From Treponemataceae bacterium (lineage in GTDB: Bacteria; Spirochaetota; Spirochaetia; Treponematales; Rectinemataceae), in NCBI GenBank assembly GCA_963677895.2, contig CAXXGJ010000005.1:1-11015 (forward strand): a DNA stretch of 11,015 nucleotides. The letters are read 5' to 3'. Shown here piece by piece: positions 1,105-11,015 of this stretch (position 1 is the first letter of the stretch; each line of letters opens with the position of its first letter). Under the pieces are notes generated by a model, which saw nothing but the letters and a program-made list of their open reading frames with translations, ran no database searches and was not told the origin of the DNA. A program made the position numbers and the translations under genes.

Positions 1105-1836
1105 TCACAGCTCCCGCGGCTCGTCGGCCAAGGGGGCAGCGTTCAATCGCATCTTGATTTGCTTCCATTGGGGGAGATGGAGTGTCATGAGTCCCTTGAA
1201 TCGCGCATCGTGGCGCCGCTCCAGCAGATGAACGAGCTCGTGGACGACGACATATTCGAGGCATTCAGGCTGTTTTTTTGCGAGCTCCAAGTTGAACCAG
1301 AGGCGCTTGGCTTTGACGTTGCAGCTACCCCATCGGGTTTTCATCTTTCGCACGCCCCAGGAAGCGGCTTTTACTCCAAGCGGCGGCTCCCACTTCGCGA
1401 TCAAAGGAGCTATCTCGAGCTTTAGCTGCTTGCGGTACCAGCGATCGAGAACCTCCCGCCGATGCTCGACCTCCGATCCGGCGCGAATGGCCAGCTCCAT
1501 CGTATCAATCTCTTTTAAAACGATGCCTTCGCGTCCCGCGACTTCCCGGATCGCGAGCCTGTATTTTTTCCCTTGAAACCAATGTGTTTCGTCACTCACC
1601 ATCTCGTGTTCCGGTGGGCGAACCTGGCTCGCGAACTTTTCCCGGTGGCCCTTGATCCACACGAGGCGCTCAATCACCGCGAGCCTGATAGCCTCTTCGC
1701 CCACCCAGAACGGCACGGCCAAACGAACCCTGCCGTCTGGAGGGTAGACGGTGATACGCAGGTGCCTGATCACCTTGCGGACCACCTCAATCTGGATGCC
1801 TGAGACTTCAATCCCAGTCGTCTTATTGCTTTTCAT
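1105..1836 (-). CDS. YgjP/DUF45-like (SprT-like/M48) zinc metallo-hydrolase, 243 aa
   Basis: HELVH (HExxH) within YVVVHELVHLLERRHDARF, MKTRWGSC motif, and N-terminal RKVIRHLRITVYPPDGRVRLAVP typical of DUF45 proteins. GGAG Shine-Dalgarno just upstream on the minus strand. GC-rich like the backbone. Confidence 0.88.
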   Translation of the reverse strand: MKSNKTTGIEVSGIQIEVVRKVIRHLRITVYPPDGRVRLAVPFWVGEEAIRLAVIERLVWIKGHREKFASQVRPPEHEMVSDETHWFQGKKYRLAIREVAGREGIVLKEIDTMELAIRAGSEVEHRREVLDRWYRKQLKLEIAPLIAKWEPPLGVKAASWGVRKMKTRWGSCNVKAKRLWFNLELAKKQPECLEYVVVHELVHLLERRHDARFKGLMTLHLPQWKQIKMRLNAAPLADEPREL

Positions 1837-1896
1837 GGAACTCCACGATATCTAGAAAGTACAAAGTTTTAAACAGAATTGTAACCCTATTTACTT

Positions 1897-1920
1897 AAGA
1901 TATGGTATATGCCATATCTT
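1897..1920. promoter_or_regulatory. 24-bp near-perfect palindrome (operator-like or hairpin)
   Basis: AAGATATGGTAT|ATGCCATATCTT, 11 of 12 positions complementary, ~60 bp upstream of the DUF45 start. The palindrome is seen directly; its function is inferred. Confidence 0.4.
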
Positions 1921-2020
1921 GTGGCTTTGCCTATCCTTTGCCATGTTATTCTCTCAATCATTATAGACTGTATATATTGATTTTAAGGAGATCATCTCAA
2001 GGTATTGTTGTATGAAGTAA

Positions 2021-2135
2021 TCACTACATTGGCAAGATCTGTAATTCCGGCTCGAAGGGCTTGGCGCGCTTTTTGCATTGTTGTTCCCACAAAAAGCGTG
2101 CCAAAGGATTTGATAGGTTGAAGCGGATGCTAGAG
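2021..2135 (-). repeat. Degenerate attC-like site downstream of the KAP NTPase gene
   Basis: Minus strand: CTCTAGC (R''-like, contains the TAG stop) ATCC GCTTCAACCT ... TTGGCACGCTTTTTG-14 nt-CAAAAAGCGCGCCAA ... GCCAAT GTAGTGA (R'-like, lacks GTT). The inner inverted repeat at 2061-2075/2090-2104 matches 14/15. Shares motifs with the site at 6024-6162. Confidence 0.62.
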
Positions 2136-5100
2136 TTTATTCTGGTTACTATACTTTACACCCAGTTGATTGTTTATTTTTCTTGTAAATATTCTCTTGT
2201 TTGTAGGTAACCATAATTTATGCCACATCTTCCAATAGAATTCTTCATCATCTCTGAATATTTCTATATTCCCTTTCTCAGTTATAAATGTACTAAACTT
2301 ATCTGAATCATCTTTTGATTCAAAAGGACCACTGTTTGTAAGATAATGTTTTTTATCCTCCAGATTTGACAATCGCTCTAGTATATATTTTACAAGTTTA
2401 ATTGGTTGTGGAATATTATATAAATGAGCTAATCTATCAATAGGCAAATTATCTTCATAAATTAACGTGGACGCTACTAATTTTCTTAAAAAATTATGGT
2501 TATTCGCCATTATCTTAGCACATTCTTTGCATTGTTTAAAAACAGTATACTTATCTTCGAGTTGCAGTTCATCAATGTCATAGAATGCATTTTCTCGTAA
2601 TATTGATCCTGCAAGGAAGGGAACATAAAGTTTATTTTCATAGAGTATATTGGTTACTTCTTTAACTATGGAAGTGTTGATGGGTATTTTGCTAAGTATG
2701 GATAGTGTTATATTTGATAATTCTTTTATGTCATTAATACTTTCAATATATTTACTATACAAACTTTCATCATCAGTCATAAATTCAATAAGGGGTTCTT
2801 CTAATTTAGGTATTAATATCTTTATCGTATACATGAATTCAATAGCCCCTATAGGCGTACTTAAATCAAATGTATTAGAGAAGTAACTGCATAAGTCATC
2901 AACTTTGTCTTTAGATATAGTGCCTAATTTTGCTGATTTGAAGTCAATATCATTTAATATTAGTCTCTGTATTGATGAATCAGATATATAATTACCATTG
3001 TAATTATCTGGATTAAACAAATTTTTTAAGACATTAAATATTATTTCACCTGATAACTTCGAATCATTAATTGCCATAGGAATAAACTTATAATTTTCTG
3101 CATTTATCTTTTCATGGTCTAGCAAGAAATATACCCCATCTGTAATCGTCAAAGCTATTTCAATTTCTTCTCTAGATATCAAAGGGAATTCGTTTAGAAA
3201 GATTGGGTTTAAATCATTTTGGTCAGTTTTTAAGTTCATTAAAAAAGATTTTCTAATATCTATAAAAACTTTTTCATCATATTCATAAATGGACTCAGCG
3301 ATTTCAATTAGCTTTTCTATAATCCAAGGATTTTCATAATTAAAACTTTTTAGTTGTTTACTAGCTTGTCTTGATACTAGAGATGATTTTATCAAATGGT
3401 TGTCTTCAAAATAAGTTAAAATTCGAGTGTCGATAATACAATCAAGTATTAATAAATCAATTTTTGTTAGTTCTTCCTTTGATAGTTCGTTTAAATCAGT
3501 TAGTACCAAGTATTTACAAAAATGACTTTTTTCAAGAGTTTGATTAATAACACTGCCAATTATAATTTCAAGGAAAGCATGATTTACTTTATTATATTTT
3601 ATTAGGTAATTCAGTGCAATGTAAGAGAATTCTTTAATATCTTCATTTTTTGAAATGATGGAGAGTAAAGTTTCAAGCTTATCTGATTGTATAGAATTAA
3701 GATTCAGTTCCAGAATGGCATTTAGTGTTTCTTTGAAATTATTCTCTACTAACTTACGAGATTCTATGAAATCAAGAACTATATCTTTATCAAAGATTTC
3801 ATTGATCTCATCAATGGTTATAAGTGGCATGTTTTCAGAAATAAATAGATTTAAAAATAGTAATTCTGAATTTTTTACTGCAAGAATTATTTCTTTTCTG
3901 TATATACTCGCTTCTTTATTTAAGCTAGAGAGTATCTTAACTAAAAAGTCTGAAAATTCTTTGAAGATATTCTCTCTTACTTTTTTCTCAATAACATTAT
4001 AATTTATAATCTTTTTTAGGAGAGTACAATCATTGTTTAGATCAGAATTCAATATTTTTATTGATCTAGCAATACAATCTTCTAATTTATGAGCATAATC
4101 ATTTTTACACGCTGTATTAAATAGAAATTCGAATTCGAGTAATATAATTGGAAAAGGGCGATTAAATTCATATAAATCTCTAAGTGCTTTAGCAATTGCA
4201 TAATCCTTTTTTTGTTTCTTCAGTATTTTTTTGTATGCTTCCTCTATTTCAGTTCTATCTTCTTCAACGAAGGGGTAATCTTCAGAATGTAATATACAAT
4301 TTACGATGAGACGTTCATTTATATCCATAATATAGCTATTCTTTGGATAGTTATAAAAGTACATAAGGAAATCATCTTCAATATCACGCTTTACAAGCAT
4401 ATTAGCAAATATTGAAACAAATATTGGAGATTCAAAATTATTATCATTATTTGAATTATATTCATTCTCTGATGTGGTAATTGGAATAATGTTATTAATA
4501 TTTTCTTCAATTGACTTGTTGTCAGGTAAAAGATAAGAAGATTGTACGATTTTTACTAGCTTGTTTTCATTTTTCAGAAGCACCATCCAGTCATGTTGAT
4601 AGCTACGTTGAAGATATACAACAGCTGCACATTTTTTTAATTGTACATCAGCATTTTCCTGCTTTTCTTTTAGAGAGTGAAAAAGTATAAATGTATCATT
4701 AAGTCTGTCTTTAATTTCTCGAATAGTGAGGTTTTCTCCTTTTCCAATCCATTGTAAGTCTTTGAGGTAATTTATTCTAACATATTCAAATGTGTCAGTT
4801 GGAGTTGGCTTAATATTGAGAAGGCTTATGTTATCGTGAAGAATATTAAGCATCAAGTCATTAATATTTTCATTATGAATAGGCTTAATTGTAATTGTAT
4901 AATCGAATATTTTTGAATATATAAGTTCACTAATTCCTGGCTTCAATGCCACTTCCGATTTTAATGATACTATGTATATAATTTGGTCTTTTTTATTCGT
5001 TGGGAGAAGGTTTACAAACCGATAAAGCTCTTTAAGAAAATATGTCGTAATATCTTGATCTCTGATTCTATCAATATCTTCAATAAAGATGACCTGTTTT

Positions 5101-5918
5101 AAATTTGAACCACCAATGCGTAATAGTCTATCAGCGACTTCACGGTATACTTCGAATAAATCTGCTGAATCTGGATCGACTTTCCCTTGTGAGTCCCATA
5201 ATGAGAATATAAAATTTCCACGTATAATTCCAATAAATAGTAGTAAAGCACTTAGAAAGAGAAAGAAGGGAGAAAGGTTTGACAACAATGATACAAGATT
5301 TATAAGTGAATCAATTGCCATTTCATTTTTAGCATTAAATATTTGAATTAGTAGAGGCTCAATTCGGTCATAATTGTAGAAATCTTTTAAATAAATGTAT
5401 ATTGAAAATATAAGTCCAGATAAAATAATGAAAATAAAACTTGAGTAGGTTGAAACAGAAAGCGATAGCTTTCCGTAATTTTTACTTAGTCTATGATTGA
5501 TATATTTTGCAAAGTTTCTGTTTCTTTTTTTATTTCCAAACGCCAATTGGTATAGAAATGACTTTGTTGAAATTGTTACAGTTTTTGTATTGCTTTCGTT
5601 TGTACTTTGATCAAAAAAACTATCCCAAAGATTAATTATAATTGTTTTTTTAAATTTGTTTTTTTCTAACTTATGCTTAAGCTTTTCGGTTAGGCTAGAT
5701 TTCCCGGAACCATAATCACCGATTATACCAATAATGTGAGCGTTCTCTTTGATTGCCTCCTTTATTGCTTCCGCTTGCATATCAAATCCAAATAAATCAT
5801 CTTTGTCTTTTGATATAGGACTATTCTTAAAAATAACCGGATGCTTATTTTCTACTTCATTTAATTTCGTTAAGGGTGCAATTTTAAGTCTAATAAAATT
5901 AGCTAAATAATTTAACAT
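2130..5918 (-). CDS. KAP-family / YobI-like P-loop NTPase with two transmembrane segments and a long C-terminal region, 1262 aa
   Basis: N-terminal DLFGFDMQAEAI, Walker A IGIIGDYGSGKSS, Walker B VIFIEDIDR, and SKIFDYTI motif. Two hydrophobic stretches (SFIFIILSGLIFSIYIYL; FFLFLSALLLFIGII) lie between Walker A and B, the KAP hallmark. GAGGA Shine-Dalgarno at 5925-5929 (minus). Confidence 0.85.
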   Translation of the reverse strand: MLNYLANFIRLKIAPLTKLNEVENKHPVIFKNSPISKDKDDLFGFDMQAEAIKEAIKENAHIIGIIGDYGSGKSSLTEKLKHKLEKNKFKKTIIINLWDSFFDQSTNESNTKTVTISTKSFLYQLAFGNKKRNRNFAKYINHRLSKNYGKLSLSVSTYSSFIFIILSGLIFSIYIYLKDFYNYDRIEPLLIQIFNAKNEMAIDSLINLVSLLSNLSPFFLFLSALLLFIGIIRGNFIFSLWDSQGKVDPDSADLFEVYREVADRLLRIGGSNLKQVIFIEDIDRIRDQDITTYFLKELYRFVNLLPTNKKDQIIYIVSLKSEVALKPGISELIYSKIFDYTITIKPIHNENINDLMLNILHDNISLLNIKPTPTDTFEYVRINYLKDLQWIGKGENLTIREIKDRLNDTFILFHSLKEKQENADVQLKKCAAVVYLQRSYQHDWMVLLKNENKLVKIVQSSYLLPDNKSIEENINNIIPITTSENEYNSNNDNNFESPIFVSIFANMLVKRDIEDDFLMYFYNYPKNSYIMDINERLIVNCILHSEDYPFVEEDRTEIEEAYKKILKKQKKDYAIAKALRDLYEFNRPFPIILLEFEFLFNTACKNDYAHKLEDCIARSIKILNSDLNNDCTLLKKIINYNVIEKKVRENIFKEFSDFLVKILSSLNKEASIYRKEIILAVKNSELLFLNLFISENMPLITIDEINEIFDKDIVLDFIESRKLVENNFKETLNAILELNLNSIQSDKLETLLSIISKNEDIKEFSYIALNYLIKYNKVNHAFLEIIIGSVINQTLEKSHFCKYLVLTDLNELSKEELTKIDLLILDCIIDTRILTYFEDNHLIKSSLVSRQASKQLKSFNYENPWIIEKLIEIAESIYEYDEKVFIDIRKSFLMNLKTDQNDLNPIFLNEFPLISREEIEIALTITDGVYFLLDHEKINAENYKFIPMAINDSKLSGEIIFNVLKNLFNPDNYNGNYISDSSIQRLILNDIDFKSAKLGTISKDKVDDLCSYFSNTFDLSTPIGAIEFMYTIKILIPKLEEPLIEFMTDDESLYSKYIESINDIKELSNITLSILSKIPINTSIVKEVTNILYENKLYVPFLAGSILRENAFYDIDELQLEDKYTVFKQCKECAKIMANNHNFLRKLVASTLIYEDNLPIDRLAHLYNIPQPIKLVKYILERLSNLEDKKHYLTNSGPFESKDDSDKFSTFITEKGNIEIFRDDEEFYWKMWHKLWLPTNKRIFTRKINNQLGVKYSNQNKL

Positions 5919-6010
5919 TATTGATCCTCACTAAATAATTTATTCAATTTGAAATAATTGCTTGAATATTTCTTTTATAAATACTTGATTGTACTTCATG
6001 TTGATTTTTC

Positions 6011-6023
6011 GCGCGAAGCATCG
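6011..6023 (-). repeat. 13-bp cassette leader repeat CGATGCTTCGCGC, copy 2
   Basis: + strand GCGCGAAGCATCG is identical to 7606-7618 and directly abuts the 7-bp core-like TTTAGTA (6024-6030, minus). Confidence 0.85.
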
Positions 6024-6162
6024 TACTAAAATTGGCTTAACATTTATAGCCTGGCCCAAACGGTTTTGTATAGCAACGATACGAAGGATAGACGTATTAT
6101 GTGTATGGGTTTTCTGCACAAACCATAACAAAGCTTTATAAGGTTGACGCAATTTTTTAAGT
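6024..6162 (-). repeat. Degenerate attC-like site between the nuclease and KAP NTPase genes
   Basis: Minus strand: ACTTAAA (R''-like, contains the TAA stop) AAATT GCGTCAACCT ... GTTAAGC CAAT TTTAGTA (R'-like). The left arm GCGTCAAC has one extra C relative to the complement of the right arm (GCTTAAC), as expected for the attC extrahelical base. Inner arms GGTTTGTG/TACAAAACC. Length 139 bp. Confidence 0.65.
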
Positions 6163-7590
6163 CTCTGATTCAATAGAATAAATGCTTGCACTTTCTTTAA
6201 GATTTCCATCTATAAGCATCAAATCACAGTTTGTAATTCCACTTGTCAAAGATTCATTGTGCAAAGCAACAAGTTCACTTATTCTAGTAGATGGCCCGCC
6301 ATTATCTATAACCAAATAAATCGCATTAGTTGTTTTTTCTGCCTTTTTATACTCCCCTATTTGTGTCGTATATCCATGTAGTAATTGTTTATTTGTTGTT
6401 AATTTAATTTCAACTACAATTCTTAATACGTATCCAATACTAAATTTAAAGTCAACAGCACCTCTACCAGAGTTTGTTTCAGGATTAATATCAGTATTAT
6501 TTGCCTTACAATATGCATCAGCTATTCCATAAAATAATCTTTGTGCAATTCTTTCGCGACGAGGTTTACCATTTGCATATAATATTTCGGAGAGCCCATT
6601 ATTCTCAATTAATTCCTTAAACATTTTACATATTTCCAGAACAAGAATATTTAATTCTATCCTGGTAGAAACCTTTGCTTTTGTAATCTTTAGCGGGATT
6701 CGCGATGTTATTTCTTTTGCAGCCTGATACCATGAATTCTCCCCCAAAGGATCTAGTAAAAAATCATAAGGATCAAGTGAAAATTCACGATATTCATAAA
6801 TTAAAGATTTAATAAGCTCTGAATCCTGTAGAACAACTCGACGTGCTGCATGTTTCTTAGCTGTGGTAGTCATTTTTTTCCAATCATCTCCGATTTGCCT
6901 GTTAATTTCACTTCTTACTTTTTCATTTAGCATACATATTAGACTTATATCTTCCCATTCAGTAGCAACTGGTAATTCATGTAAGATTTCCTTTGGAAGA
7001 AGATATAATTTCTTTCCATTGAAGGGGTTTAAAATTAATCCATCTACAAACTTAATATCTTTTCGAGATTTATTGTCTATTCCTATTTTCGTTAGAACTC
7101 GAATCGAATAAGCATGCAAATATCCACTTATTGTCCGGGCAATAAAATCACTAATTCTATCTGGTCCAATATCATCTTCAAACAACCCAACTATTTCAAA
7201 TATTTCTGGTTCTTTCACACCTGCATCAATTATTTCTTTACCAGAACGTAGAATTTTTATCTTTAGCTCTTTTCCAGACCCCGAACCTGCTGTTCCGTTT
7301 TCAGAATATCCAAGGCAGATTTCTTCAAATTCTGTCATCTTTAATAATTCAAATGCCTCTCGCCAAAATCTATCTTCATCTTTTTTCGAAACACTTAACA
7401 ATGTACCTATTTGATTGAACAATTTTGAAATTGCATCATAAGCACCAATTAATTCGGGTATATTAGCATCCCTAATACGAATAAAGTTAACAAACATCCG
7501 TGAATCAAAATCAAGAAGTGTATCAAAGCATCCTTCAGAATCTAATAATACTTTAGGTATTTGCAGAAAATCACTTAATGAAATAGACAT
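6157..7590 (-). CDS. Uncharacterised protein with a C-terminal PD-(D/E)xK (restriction endonuclease-like) nuclease domain, 477 aa
   Basis: C-terminal PETNSGRGAVDFKF...VVEIKL followed by QIGEY (E...D...ExK...QxxxY arrangement). GAGGTG Shine-Dalgarno 5 nt upstream of the ATG. Long ORF in AT-rich DNA. Confidence 0.72.
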   Translation of the reverse strand: MSISLSDFLQIPKVLLDSEGCFDTLLDFDSRMFVNFIRIRDANIPELIGAYDAISKLFNQIGTLLSVSKKDEDRFWREAFELLKMTEFEEICLGYSENGTAGSGSGKELKIKILRSGKEIIDAGVKEPEIFEIVGLFEDDIGPDRISDFIARTISGYLHAYSIRVLTKIGIDNKSRKDIKFVDGLILNPFNGKKLYLLPKEILHELPVATEWEDISLICMLNEKVRSEINRQIGDDWKKMTTTAKKHAARRVVLQDSELIKSLIYEYREFSLDPYDFLLDPLGENSWYQAAKEITSRIPLKITKAKVSTRIELNILVLEICKMFKELIENNGLSEILYANGKPRRERIAQRLFYGIADAYCKANNTDINPETNSGRGAVDFKFSIGYVLRIVVEIKLTTNKQLLHGYTTQIGEYKKAEKTTNAIYLVIDNGGPSTRISELVALHNESLTSGITNCDLMLIDGNLKESASIYSIESET

Positions 7591-7605
7591 ATTTTCACCT
7601 CTTCG

Positions 7606-7618
7606 GCGCGAAGCATCG
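7606..7618 (-). repeat. 13-bp cassette leader repeat CGATGCTTCGCGC, copy 1
   Basis: Identical to 6011-6023 and directly abuts the perfect core GTTAGGT (7619-7625, minus). Confidence 0.85.
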
Positions 7619-7652
7619 ACCTAACAACAATTCACTTATTCTGTATAACTCC
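7619..7652 (-). other. attI-like recombination site (core GTTAGGT with upstream GTTATAC)
   Basis: Minus strand GGAGTTATACAGAATAAGTGAATTGTT-GTTAGGT. Perfect GTTRRRY ~30 bp before the first gene, with no attC-type hairpin arm upstream. A second GTT box at 7643-7649 resembles an accessory integrase site. Confidence 0.5.
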
Positions 7653-7661
7653 CAAATCATC

Positions 7662-7689
7662 ATTTTACACCAATCCAAAAAACGCGCAA
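7662..7689 (-). promoter_or_regulatory. Putative sigma70 promoter driving the array (Pc-like)
   Basis: Minus strand TTGCGC (7689-7684), 16-bp spacer, TAAAAT (7667-7662), pointing through the core site into the first cassette. Confidence 0.45.
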
Positions 7690-7785
7690 GCCACAATTCC
7701 TGTTTTAAAAAGAAAATATCACGACTTGCTTAATCAAGACTTATGTTATACGACAGGATTAACACTTTTATTCGCACTCCATGAA

Positions 7786-7794
7786 TGCTATATT
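7786..7794 (+). promoter_or_regulatory. Extended -10 promoter (TGcTATATT) of the DUF72 gene
   Basis: TG-c-TATATT ends 8 nt before ATG 7803, and there is no Shine-Dalgarno in between. Confidence 0.4.
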
Positions 7795-7802
7795 CTTAAT
7801 AT

Positions 7803-8630
7803 ATGCCCCTCTACATCGGCACCTGTTCCTGGAACTACGACTCCTGGGTTGGGCTGGTGTATGACCAGCCTGAATCGCGGTCCGTCGACTACCTCGCCGC
7901 GTACGCGAAGCGATACAGGACGGTCGAAGTCGATTCCTGGTTCTACAAGATTCCGACCATGAGGGAAGTTGAGGAGTACGCGGCCGTCGTCGATTCAGGC
8001 TTCAGCTTCGTCGTCAAGGCGCCTCAGGACATCACGCTTACGCATAAGCGGGGCGACATAGAGCCGAATCCTGCCTTCCTTTCGCCCAAGCTCTTCGGAC
8101 ATTTCCTCGAAAGGCTCTCGCCGATAAAAGGTCAGATCGGCGCCATCATCCTCGAATTCGAGTACCTGAACCGCCAGAAGATGGCTGGCCAGAAGGCCTT
8201 CATCGATGCGTTGCGCGCCTTCCTCGATCGCGTGCCCAGGTATATTCCCATCGCTGTGGAGCCGCGGAACGGGCCTTACCTCGACGAAGCCTGATTCTCC
8301 TTCCTGGCTGAAGCCAAGGTCTCCCATGTCTTCTCGGAAAAGCAGTTCATGCCGCCCATCGTCGAACTGTGCGCGCGCTACTCAAGACTTCTCAACGATC
8401 TCGTCATCATCCGCCTGCTCGGCGACGACCGGAAAAAGATAGAGGAAGCCTCGGGAGGACGTTGGGACAGGATCATCGATCCGAAGCCCGAGCTTCCCCT
8501 CATAGCGGCCATGGTTTCGGACCTGGTCGCGTCGGGGCGCGAGGTCAGAGTCGACGTCAACAATCATTATGAGGGTTCGGCGCCGGAAAGCATCGAAAGG
8601 TTGAAAGGTTTTCTCCTTTCTCCGTTGTGA
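7803..8630 (+). pseudogene. DUF72 (YecE-like) protein interrupted by one in-frame TGA at 8292-8294
   Basis: Motifs YIGTCSWNYDSWVGLVY, TVEVDSWFY, FVVKAPQDIT, AVEPRN, IIRLLG, VNNHYEGSAP. ORFs 7803..8294 and 8349..8630 share a frame, and the intervening codons read DEA*FSFLAEAKVSHVFSEKQF without another stop. Confidence 0.8.
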
Positions 8631-8717: not shown

Positions 8718-11015
8718 GTGAAAGCGAACTGTTCACATTCACAGGCACGTTATGCGATCATTATCGCGCTTCTGTTGCTCATCGGCGGCTTGTTGCCGGC
8801 GACGGCCGAGCCGGGCGCCCTCCTTGCGTCATCATTCACGCCACGTCAGCTTGCCTCCATAGCCAAGGAAGCGAGCGAAGCGGTTGAGCAAGCCCTGCAA
8901 GCCACGGGAGCCTCAGCGGCTAGCGTCGCCCTGGGCGACGGAGGCGGCACGGTATGGTCCGCTCAATTTGGATTGGCCGACAAGGAAGCGAAGAAGGCGC
9001 CTGAGCCGGAGACGATGTTCGGCATAGGTTCCACAAGCAAGATGTTCGCGACCGCCGCGGCCATGATACTTGTGGACAGAGGCCTGATCGGGCTGGATAT
9101 GCCCCTCGTCGCCTATCTGCCCGAGTTCCGCATGGCGACGCCGGGCTACGAAAAAATAACCGTGCGCATGCTGCTCAACCATTCCGCGGGATTCCCGGGA
9201 ACGGACTACCGCAACGCGATGACGCGCGCCCCGATTCAGGGCTATGCCGATCAGGTTCAGGCGACCCTCGCCGAATCAAGGCTGAAACACGAGCCGGGAT
9301 GGATGAACGTCTACGCCAATGACGGCTTTACCATGGTGGAACTTCTTGTCAAGAAAATGACGGGCCTCGATTATCCCGCCTTCATCGAAAAGGAAATTCT
9401 TTCGCCCTTGGGAATGAACCATTCGCTCTACCCGCTCGCCTCCTTCCGCGAAGGAAGCTTCGCCAGGCCCTATGCCGGGGAACAGCCCCTCCAGCAGGAG
9501 TACGTGGGACCCTTGGCCTCGGGCGGGCTCTACTCCACTCCTTCCGATCTCACGCGTTTCGCGGCGATGTTTATCGGGAAGGGCAGTCTGCGGGAGAAGC
9601 GGATTCTCTCTCCTGAATCCGTAGCCGCCATGGCTCTGGACCAGACCGCGGGGAGATTCAGTCCCTTGCCCAGCGGCTATTTCCGCAATGGTCTTGGATG
9701 GGACACCGTCGATCATGAAGGAATGGCGGCCTTCGGGATCAAGGCTTGGCAGAAGGGCGGCGACACCAATTCCTACGGCTCGACCCTCATCGTCCTGCCG
9801 GAAGAAGGCCTCTCGGTAGCGGTGACCGGCGCCTCGGGCCTGCATTCAGACAGCGCGAACGCGATCGCCGAAATAGTATTGGCTCGCGCCCTCGTGGAAA
9901 AAGGCAGGCTCGCGGCCATGCCGGTCGCGGTTCCGGCGGCAGCCCTGCAGACGGCGGCTGTTCCCTCCGAATTTCTCCAGAACATGTCAGGCGTCTACGC
10001 TTCCTTCAACGCAGTCAACAAAATCGAACTCCGTGCCGACGGCAGCCTTTCATTGTATTCATACAAGAATGACGCGTGGGTGCTGGCCCTTCAGGGGATG
10101 AGCTATCGCGATGACGGATGGTTCAGCTCCAGCGATGCCGGCGCTCCTCCTGTCGACGTTACCAGGATCGTGGCGGATGGCCGCGATTACCTGGCGATCC
10201 GCATTCCGAGCGCGCATGGGTGGTATCGATCGGCCATGCCGTTCGCGCAAAAAATCGCCCCGCAGCCTCCTCTTTCTCCCGCGTGGCAAAAACGAATGGG
10301 CAAGACATGGCTTCCCGTAAATTACGCGGCCGAAGACGATTACCTCGCCAAGGGCGCTGACCCCAGGATCTGGCTTAAGACGATAGAAGGCGCCGAAGGG
10401 TATGTATTCTCCCGCGGTCCCGATGGCTGGATGGCGACGATACCCGCGACCGGAAACGGGGATTATGAATCCCGCTCATTCATTCTCATCCCGCAAATAA
10501 ATGGCAGGGATTTATACGACGTGAAGGTCATCCAGCGGGACGGAGAGGAATGGCTTCGCGAAACGAGCACTCTGTATCGGCCCCTCGATTCCGTGCCCGC
10601 GCTGAGTCTCGGCGAGAGTCGCGTAACGACAGGCCCCGAAGGTTATGCGGAATGGCGTCGCCTGCCTGCCGAAGCCCAATTCACCGTGACCGGGGCGAAA
10701 ACCTTCAAATTCTACGACGCGGATTTCGCGCAGCAGAATTCTGATTCCCTCACGACGGGCGCAGGCGGCGGGTATCTGGCCGTTTTCGGCGTCCCGGGCG
10801 GCAGCGCGCGAATTTCGGTGCGCTCCATCTCGAAATCTCAGGCTGCGATTTCCGTCCCCTTCTCCCCCGAGCAGCAGGCGCGGATAGCCGAGGCCGGGCG
10901 CAAGGCCGCCGAGTCTGTCATGGAATCCTCGGGCGGATCAGCCCTGACCGCCGCTCTTGTCGATGAAAGCGGGCTCGTCTGGGCCGGGCAGTTCGGGTTG
11001 GCCGACAAGGCGACC
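8718..11015 (+). CDS. Secreted serine hydrolase of the beta-lactamase class C / AmpC-like family, multi-domain, 3'-truncated (>766 aa)
   Basis: Absent from the ORF track; translated by hand. AGGAGA at 8705-8710, GTG at 8718, signal-peptide-like MKANCSHSQARYAIIIALLLLIGGLLPATA. SxxK = STSK (9030-9041), LLNHSAG, YxN = YAN (9312-9320), ASGGLYST, GLGW, KGG (9753-9761). No stop before the window end. Confidence 0.9.
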   Translation, partial: MKANCSHSQARYAIIIALLLLIGGLLPATAEPGALLASSFTPRQLASIAKEASEAVEQALQATGASAASVALGDGGGTVWSAQFGLADKEAKKAPEPETMFGIGSTSKMFATAAAMILVDRGLIGLDMPLVAYLPEFRMATPGYEKITVRMLLNHSAGFPGTDYRNAMTRAPIQGYADQVQATLAESRLKHEPGWMNVYANDGFTMVELLVKKMTGLDYPAFIEKEILSPLGMNHSLYPLASFREGSFARPYAGEQPLQQEYVGPLASGGLYSTPSDLTRFAAMFIGKGSLREKRILSPESVAAMALDQTAGRFSPLPSGYFRNGLGWDTVDHEGMAAFGIKAWQKGGDTNSYGSTLIVLPEEGLSVAVTGASGLHSDSANAIAEIVLARALVEKGRLAAMPVAVPAAALQTAAVPSEFLQNMSGVYASFNAVNKIELRADGSLSLYSYKNDAWVLALQGMSYRDDGWFSSSDAGAPPVDVTRIVADGRDYLAIRIPSAHGWYRSAMPFAQKIAPQPPLSPAWQKRMGKTWLPVNYAAEDDYLAKGADPRIWLKTIEGAEGYVFSRGPDGWMATIPATGNGDYESRSFILIPQINGRDLYDVKVIQRDGEEWLRETSTLYRPLDSVPALSLGESRVTTGPEGYAEWRRLPAEAQFTVTGAKTFKFYDADFAQQNSDSLTTGAGGGYLAVFGVPGGSARISVRSISKSQAAISVPFSPEQQARIAEAGRKAAESVMESSGGSALTAALVDESGLVWAGQFGLADKAT

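Follow-up and report, generated by a model that had tools for sequence, protein, structure and literature searches.

The question raised by this locus is how two long genes of probable defence function, each followed by what looks like an integron recombination site, came to lie in a spirochaete genome with no integron integrase beside them. The window, meaning the whole 11,015-nucleotide stretch analysed, comprises positions 1 to 11,015 of contig CAXXGJ010000005.1 (GCA_963677895.2, Treponemataceae bacterium). It holds a low-GC island at about 1850-7800 (27-33% GC, against 57-65% in the flanks), in which two long open reading frames (ORFs) lie on the minus strand at 6157-7590 (477 aa) and 2130-5918 (1262 aa). 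An earlier reading made from the sequence alone had proposed a cryptic integron cassette array, and the presence of integron cassettes with spirochaete-type attC sites has been borne out. We consider it likely that the island is a small integron array at a stand-alone attI-like dock; its attC sites have decayed, and the leader at the 5′ end of its cassettes is a mini-hairpin that may act as a single-stranded DNA (ssDNA) element. The features of the array are as follows, in minus-strand order.

7625..7802, minus strand: putative integrase-less docking platform, a 178-bp AT-rich spacer that separates the DUF72 start from the crossover G and has AAT-N4 ahead of the core; conserved in the window, in contig C2 of the window's own assembly (G000) and in a congener (G001)
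7618..7625, minus strand: crossover core G-TTAGGTC (break after G), the attI-like/cassette junction, at which homology between alleles ends
7606..7617, minus strand: leader 1, a mini-hairpin with a bulge at the unpaired +9 A; +8 G and +19 C form a pair, the loop TTC is GAA on the bottom strand, and one stem pair is broken by C>T
6157..7590, minus strand: 477-aa DUF8370/DUF8371 protein with a predicted C-terminal restriction-endonuclease-like fold (homologues, Atlas name, structure model)
6024..6162, minus strand: decayed attC 1 (family profile); AAC>AAA and GTT>TTT, two mutually complementary changes in the first triplet position
6011..6022, minus strand: leader 2, matching leader 1 exactly over 13 nt
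2130..5918, minus strand: 1262-aa KAP-family P-loop NTPase with a long helical C-terminal region (precomputed PF07693, homologues, Atlas)
2021..2135, minus strand: decayed attC 2 (family profile); R'' is AGC, L' is lost, R' is GTAGTGA

The attC Sites

Each hairpin begins at the stop codon of the gene preceding it, and the motifs and repeated 13-mer quoted in the sequence-only reading are where it had placed them. When both hairpins were compared by BLAST with G000, of which contigs C2, C4 and C39 are discussed here among others, many related repeats were found, mostly on C39. A profile of 17 intact attC repeats from the same assembly matched 6161-6024 (E 2.9e-13) and 2135-2023 (E 3.6e-12). Contig C39 (1-46421) is itself a 46-kb cassette array with 45 attC sites by a strict finder; its 5′ end is cut, it contains no intI, and its last sites are more decayed. 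Intact relatives of the hairpins, for which a search had been recommended, are therefore abundant.

The two sites in the window differ from these relatives in several respects. Identity to the nearest family member is 110/141 for attC 1 and 84/116 for attC 2; intact members have a median nearest-neighbour score of 0.95. By folding energy per base among 227 sites, attC 1 is the weakest of all and attC 2 is in the weakest 4%. Bottom-strand folds, which had also been suggested as a check, retain the outer arms at attC 1 and the inner stem only at attC 2, as in decayed members. Intact AAC/GTT triplets are absent at both sites (AAA/TTT at attC 1, AGC/GTA at attC 2). The two 7-bp cores described earlier can be upheld for the first, GTTAGGT, but the second, in attC 1, reads TTTAGTA with the partner box ACTTAAA and is not of the form GTTRRRY. 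From their sequences, both sites are attC-derived but probably non-working. A first-position mismatch between partners blocks attC recombination, and attC 1 would be unable to recombine with G-type sites because the same first nucleotide is required in both (PMC2811028). Both genes are full length in comparison with their homologues although both attC sites have decayed, which suggests that the sites decayed while the genes were kept.

The changes in attC 1 (6024-6035 and 6150-6162) render its outer arms more complementary across the usually unpaired spacer, and might reflect template switching in a quasi-palindrome. Further isolated attC sites occur in G000 beside low-GC genes, some of them defence-like (C6:171276-171400, C18:529573-531074, C30:18911-19035). 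A plasmid search with a short attC matched one record. An 89-aa ORF at 5940-6209 was not counted as a gene; it overlaps attC 1 and has no Pfam match.

A Proposed Dock Without an Integrase

The region upstream of DUF72 recurs on contig C2 and in G001, with the same M48 gene at the distal end. Alignment of the three copies holds between the DUF72 start and GTTAG (GCTAG in C2), beyond which they are unrelated; the first ORFs after the core encode 477, 639 and 181 aa, each with its own leader hairpin. In an independent run of another study, a 481-nt contig matches by its last 211 letters only, corresponding to 7620-7830. The comparison of alleles fits a fixed site that takes new cassettes in first position, and we infer that the 7625 site is a reusable dock at which different lineages hold different cassettes. 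The sequence AAT-N4-GTT is common to the dock and to 5/7 family attI sites, and likeness to attI is limited to that. In another genome of the family, G005, DUF72 is present and the spacer is not. As for the promoter proposed earlier, a consensus scan of 7560-7830 gave 0 sites; by eye, a weak promoter-like pair, TTGC..TAAAAT/TAGAAT, is conserved in the three dock alleles.

Such an arrangement is not confined to one position.

G000 contigs C4, C13 and C28, and L208, L267 and L269: second integrase-less dock, six alleles, front-loaded

It lies 25-45 bp past the stop codon of a gene which is downstream of another, presumably mannose-6-phosphate-isomerase-like. Its six alleles (C4, C13, C28, G001, G002 and G017) share an AT-rich end, ..AAT/TAT/AAC-N4-GTT, and then differ. 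In G002 a cassette of 107 aa adjoins the core, and in G001, C4 and C28 one to two further attC-bounded units stand before the same 107-aa cassette. On this comparison the second dock appears to be loaded from the front, as an attI site is, without an intI. The site was not found in G005 or G046.

None of the ORFs in the window is of the IntI family, in agreement with the sequence-only reading, which had proposed a search of the genome for one. IntI was absent from G000 by TIGR02249, by the PF00589 listing and by tblastn; the best TIGR02249 match scored 103 bits against a cut-off of 265, and the IntI proteins of relatives gave matches of about 30% only. The flanks of the relatives' intI genes are likewise missing from G000, and the absence may therefore be an assembly gap. 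A 295-aa recombinase on C30 was rejected as an IntI, its score being below IntI level and its surroundings prophage-like. Elsewhere, IntI was found above the curated cut-off in 24/41 genomes searched, and one match was obtained from ten other genomes. The congener G001 has three intact tandem integrons (C1, C5 and C7), one with an array of more than 100 kb, as well as the same dock with one cassette, and it is on this account likely that cassettes are inserted at the dock by an IntI acting in trans.

In genomes of the family intI is in tandem, upstream of attI and pointing toward the array, and the crossover is 151-170 bp past the intI stop in 10/15 loci. Treponema integrons have the same tandem orientation (PMC3607928). 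The suggestion that DUF72 occupies the usual divergent position of intI thus does not apply to this group. Loss of intI or action in trans were the right alternatives to consider; deletion is not supported, as the region 7606-7760 has no intI-linked copy among 69 family genomes.

The Cassette Leader

The sequence CGATGCTTCGCGC occurs twice on the minus strand, at 7618-7606 and 6023-6011. It had been noted behind each core; comparison of leaders indicates that it belongs to the cassettes, as a variant of a general 5′ leader rather than an attI feature. A general repeat search of the window did not place the 13-mer in its top families, and an Rfam scan of the window gave one chance match only. 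Leaders were collected in a first set of 282 unique sequences from 8 genomes and a held-out set of 130 from 9 genomes (G038 in both), 412 in total.

In the first set A is found at +9 in 268/282, G at +8 in 228/282 and a GC hairpin in 203/282, and the +9 A is near-invariant also in leaders without the hairpin. Loops of the type G(N1-3)A fall on the bottom strand in 153 leaders and on the top strand in 4, compared with 2.2 in shuffled leaders and 1 in a downstream window. The bias is seen again among 92 distinct hairpins (46 bottom, 3 top), in the held-out set, where 105/130 leaders have the hairpin (73 bottom, 0 top), and when one leader per cassette family is taken, with the hairpin in 260/347 (191 bottom, 3 top). 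The stem starts at +10 in 289/412 leaders; in 279 of those +9 is A, and in 18 only is it paired. In 274 the base following the stem is the pairing partner of +8 (263 G-C, 10 C-G and 1 T-A, against a maximum of 261 when partners are shuffled), and when C is at +8, G is opposite in 10/10 leaders. At +7, +6 and +5, bases on the two sides of the bulge pair no more often than in shuffles. A stem, an unpaired +9 and a pair across it amount to a hairpin with a bulge, whose extrahelical base is T on the bottom strand. The C-closed G(N1-3)A loop on a short GC stem is that of a DNA mini-hairpin, and the top-strand loops TTC, TCC, TAC, TGC, TTAC, TAAC and TGAC all read G..A on the opposite strand. The structure and its strand bias are supported by covariation across the leaders.

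The bottom strand of both leaders in the window contains GCGAAGC. Hairpins of this type are unusually stable in DNA and bind the ssDNA-binding protein SSB poorly, as known for the free 7-mer (PMC13037366). The C+GATGC variant is present in 7/412 unique leaders, the window leader among them, and in no other leader of G000 or G001; both leaders of the window have this rare form, which suggests descent from one source, for example a single donor lineage or a duplication event. The association of leader class is stronger with the attC type of the cassette itself (p 0.005) than with the preceding site (p 0.08). Leader class is concordant in 49/50 cassette families, and the one discordant family differs by point changes.

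Viral contigs (L247-L264) have spirochaete-type attC sites followed by bulged hairpins of 40-50 nt. Their 16 unique leaders have longer hairpins, about half with the +9 bulge, and bottom-strand mini-hairpins outnumber those on the top strand 10 to 0; they are apparently a long form of the leader. Both the viral scan and a scan of the phylum had GAC in the search pattern and show distribution, not conservation. No description of the leader was found in the literature consulted, including the accessible parts of PMC8352920, PMC4909258, PMC6557892 and PMC5737381, a coverage that does not extend to the original T. denticola integron paper.

Cassette Ends and Cargo Genes

In 91-99% of 224 unique family cassettes the first eight bases, and not those beyond, pair with the R'' side of the cassette's own attC. 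The nuclease unit follows this rule at 6/8 positions, including all three variable ones (GTC with GAC). In the KAP unit, which at 3.9 kb is large for a cassette, TAC faces AGT and 0/3 variable positions agree. A frame of 19 codons at 5940-5999 (minus strand), between leader 2 and the KAP start, is possibly the stub of a lost cassette. The mismatched end suggests either a fusion of two cassettes or a replacement, and given the short frame as well, the KAP unit may be such a fusion.

The 477-aa protein has 269 homologues. A search for its loci with the protein alone gave none, and an alignment search did find them. Its structure model (predicted TM score 0.82) best matches BglII, BstYI and BamHI over residues of about 308-470, with middling Z scores of 7.4-7.6, short of decisive, and a test for the PD-(D/E)XK motif found D380, E394 and K396 invariant. 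There is a weak PADLOC match to PDC-M36A, and nothing clear came from a PDB sequence search or Foldseek. The protein is probably a defence nuclease. The 1262-aa protein has 29 full-length homologues with an invariant GxYGxGKS (Walker A) and a weak match to PifA; its assignment to PF07693 comes from precomputed annotation and Atlas neighbours, and the family did not appear in our own Pfam scan of the window. Judged by sequence, it is probably a defence protein. Chromosomal integrons are rich in defence genes (10.1101/2024.07.02.601686), and by analogy a defence role for both genes is plausible. A two-gene system of nuclease and KAP protein is not supported, homologues of the two failing to co-occur within the retrieved flanks of 96 loci.

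Neighboring Genes and Assembly

The array lies between two genes that remain in place from allele to allele.

7803..8630, plus strand: DUF72 gene, the fixed flank on the proximal side, oriented divergently from the array (Pfam PF01904); intact in the C2 copy, G001 and G005
1105..1836, minus strand: YgjP-like (M48) metallopeptidase gene, distal fixed flank (Pfam PF01863); same flank in the C2 copy and G001

The DUF72 gene has an in-frame TGA at 8292-8294 (codon 164), and related contigs have G at 8294; the gene is either a pseudogene or affected by a low-coverage assembly error. After attC 2, positions 1837-2020 are AT-rich non-coding DNA, unlike the same position in other alleles and a possible cassette remnant. 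Other alleles carry an extra gene or genes between the last attC and the M48 gene (L056 6363-8290, L051 10004-10580), which the window lacks; we take these to be a small helix-turn-helix gene and, in the C2 copy, also a HipA-like gene. Outside the array, 8718-11015 encodes a large protein in which Pfam finds a beta-lactamase-family (serine hydrolase) domain; its counterpart in the C2 copy has 1392 aa. Contigs from a public run, which is probably the source sample of the window, are identical to it over 2058-3650 and 3647-7842 and support the assembly only.

Relation to Known Systems

Clusters of attC sites, or single attC sites, lacking integron integrases (CALINs and SALINs) resemble the window in its two attC sites, lack of a nearby intI and small size, and insertion at secondary sites by a distant IntI is one proposed origin for them (PMC4889954; 10.1101/2022.09.11.507474). 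The array qualifies as a CALIN. CALINs and secondary-site insertion are already known (PMC4889954), and taken alone the array is an ordinary CALIN. The dock appears to behave like attI and unlike a one-off insertion, in that different lineages have used it again, its upstream half is conserved and (at the second dock) loading is from the front. Both attC sites are also decayed. The chromosomal (reverse) integrons of Treponema have similar attC arms, a GTTAG core and sites of 110-150 bp; relatives have intI upstream, in tandem (Wu et al., 2013; PMC3607928). They differ in that the window locus has no intI, and the accessible text of that paper does not mention a leader hairpin for Treponema.

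With respect to the leader, the junction resembles attG (Loot et al.) in its GWT core and in G and A/C at +8 and +9; unlike attG, the full CRGM is found in only 59/282 leaders, and the motif is carried by the cassette and not by the genomic site. Extrahelical bases and GAA terminal loops within attC guide strand choice (Bouvier et al., 2009; PMC2727003). The leader likewise has a bottom-strand-specific extrahelical base and a 5′-GAA loop; those features are inside attC, whereas the leader sits beyond R', across the crossover, at the cassette 5′ end. Mini-hairpins at ssDNA-priming sites (G4, St-1 and alpha3 origins, ssiA, N4 promoters) also have C-closed GNA/GNNA loops on one strand of DNA passing through a single-stranded phase (PMC13037366), a likeness that is structural only.

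Proposed Mechanism and Alternatives

From the comparison of alleles, an IntI encoded elsewhere would insert circular cassettes at the G-TT of the dock, and different lineages would come to hold different cassettes at one dock. Decay of attC, which is seen in the window, would then lock in two intact defence-like genes, presumably under selection on the genes. In an excised cassette the leader would lie directly against its own attC. There, with the bottom strand single-stranded, it may fold and serve as an accessory to an extended attC module, resisting SSB and being recognised by a protein so as to help folding or synapsis. We favor this accessory role tentatively, at somewhat less than an even chance. 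A more speculative version, on balance unlikely, is that the bulged GNA mini-hairpin beside 5′-GTC-3′ is read by a protein, possibly primase, and marks the true boundary of the cassette module, with several docks served in trans forming a distributed integron whose genes are domesticated by attC decay.

A number of observations weigh against the reading of the locus given at the outset. Many small contigs of G000 duplicate large ones at 88-97% identity and the assembly probably combines closely related populations; features cannot safely be assigned to one and the same cell, and the C39 array and the C2 copy may come from other cells. With no intI beside it the array is not a complete integron, and none was found anywhere in G000. 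The dock is rare, its spacer matching only G000 and G001 among 69 family genomes, in which no empty allele of the 7625 dock was seen, so that its origin is open to the other accounts given below. The KAP unit breaks the pairing rule for cassette ends. Homologues of either gene, whose lack of flanking attC sites the sequence-only reading had named as a refuting sign, gave 0 clear cases within a cassette and one weak candidate in 94 of 96 loci examined, a check that left out the closest homologues (72-86%); neither a 64% homologue of the nuclease nor a 34% homologue of the KAP protein, both in other spirochaetes, has an attC. The idea of widely travelling cassettes is weakened by this. As for the leader, about 30% lack the hairpin, 50/203 hairpins have other loops, and G..A is kept throughout in only 5/13 cassette families having loop variants. 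The genomes are related and not independent samples, and the counts overstate certainty, although loop and pair variants are many. In Vibrio, G401 showed no array beside its intI and five other regions yielded no sites of use, leaving as outgroup only 33 leaders from relatives of a Rhodanobacter genome (Xanthomonadales-like), among which there are 2 hairpins and 0 G..A loops; cassettes work there without them.

Two other origins for the dock have to be considered. It could be the leftover attI and spacer of an integron with a deleted intI, the array being a frozen relic. The 178 bp from DUF72 start to core are close to the 151-170 bp measured from the intI stop in most true loci, and T. phagedenis shows loss of intI with attC remnants (PMC3607928). 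The spacer is, however, unlike intI-linked spacers and holds no intI remnant, the alleles vary in cassettes with DUF72 in place in all, and at the second dock the upstream stop is only about 25-45 bp from the core; a relic is accordingly rather improbable. A somewhat better case, still an unlikely one, can be made for an attG hot spot (Loot et al.), in which an ordinary promoter region is struck repeatedly and no attI has evolved. GWT sites in a genome are targets for insertion by IntI, and cassettes placed there can become domesticated (10.1101/2022.09.11.507474). After a first insertion the cassette supplies +8 G and +9 A, the GM of the CRGM right motif (NNGM 216/282, CRGM as above). Against this, two unrelated docks have a conserved, attI-like upstream half (AAT-N4), attG being described as unlike attI, and new cassettes enter at the front.

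For the leader, an initiation signal on ssDNA is conceivable: primase would bind the bottom-strand 5′-GTC-3′ and start the top strand at the +9 A, making single-stranded cassettes or recombination intermediates double. Primers usually start with a purine, and T7 primase reads GTC. The template triplet is GTC in 283/412 leaders and ATC in 45/412, and the +9 A persists without the hairpin. Mini-hairpins, including GAA and GTTA loops as here, are found at primase sites of phages G4, St-1 and alpha3 and at ssiA (PMC13037366), and cassettes can be released as single strands (PMC12614218). The bulge alone, however, accounts for the +9 A, and the motif is absent from the Rhodanobacter-relative leaders. 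We know, moreover, of no reported specificity for a spirochaete primase, and hold priming to be doubtful. Equally doubtful is a reading of the leader as a scar left when the cassette was born. The two elements, attC and leader, would have been added as one module, in which the hairpin protected or primed the end of a gene copy in single-stranded form; thereafter the leader would have had no function. Inheritance of leader type with the cassette and its link to the cassette's own attC type agree with this; how cassettes are created is not established (PMC4889954), and mini-hairpins withstand 3′ exonucleases (PMC13037366). Compensatory pairs and loop variants within cassette families suggest instead continued selection. 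Finally, the leader could be an RNA hairpin of the 5′ untranslated region or a tiny insertion, like a repetitive extragenic palindrome (REP), that targets attC flanks. It does lie just upstream of ribosome-binding sites, and similar GC units occur inside the attC variable region (47/300 on the bottom strand, 2 on the top). To our knowledge, no RNA motif is common to the top-strand loops, which are all G..A on the opposite strand. Apart from the window's own, G000 has no leader-type unit in AT-rich DNA remote from attC, and 50 cassette families include no clean presence/absence pair; the dispersed copies and presence or absence at homologous loci typical of REP/REPIN elements were not found, dispersal being examined in G000. 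This explanation of the leader is largely disfavoured and the least probable of those considered.

Significance

How cassettes arise and how single-stranded cassettes are handled are open questions that the leader structure could address. A conserved, covarying and strand-specific structure outside the accepted attC boundary is a concrete experimental handle. Docks that are reused without an intI would be evidence from nature that integrases act in trans, and that a genomic hot spot can develop into an attI. The decayed attC sites would show how defence-like genes can become fixed.

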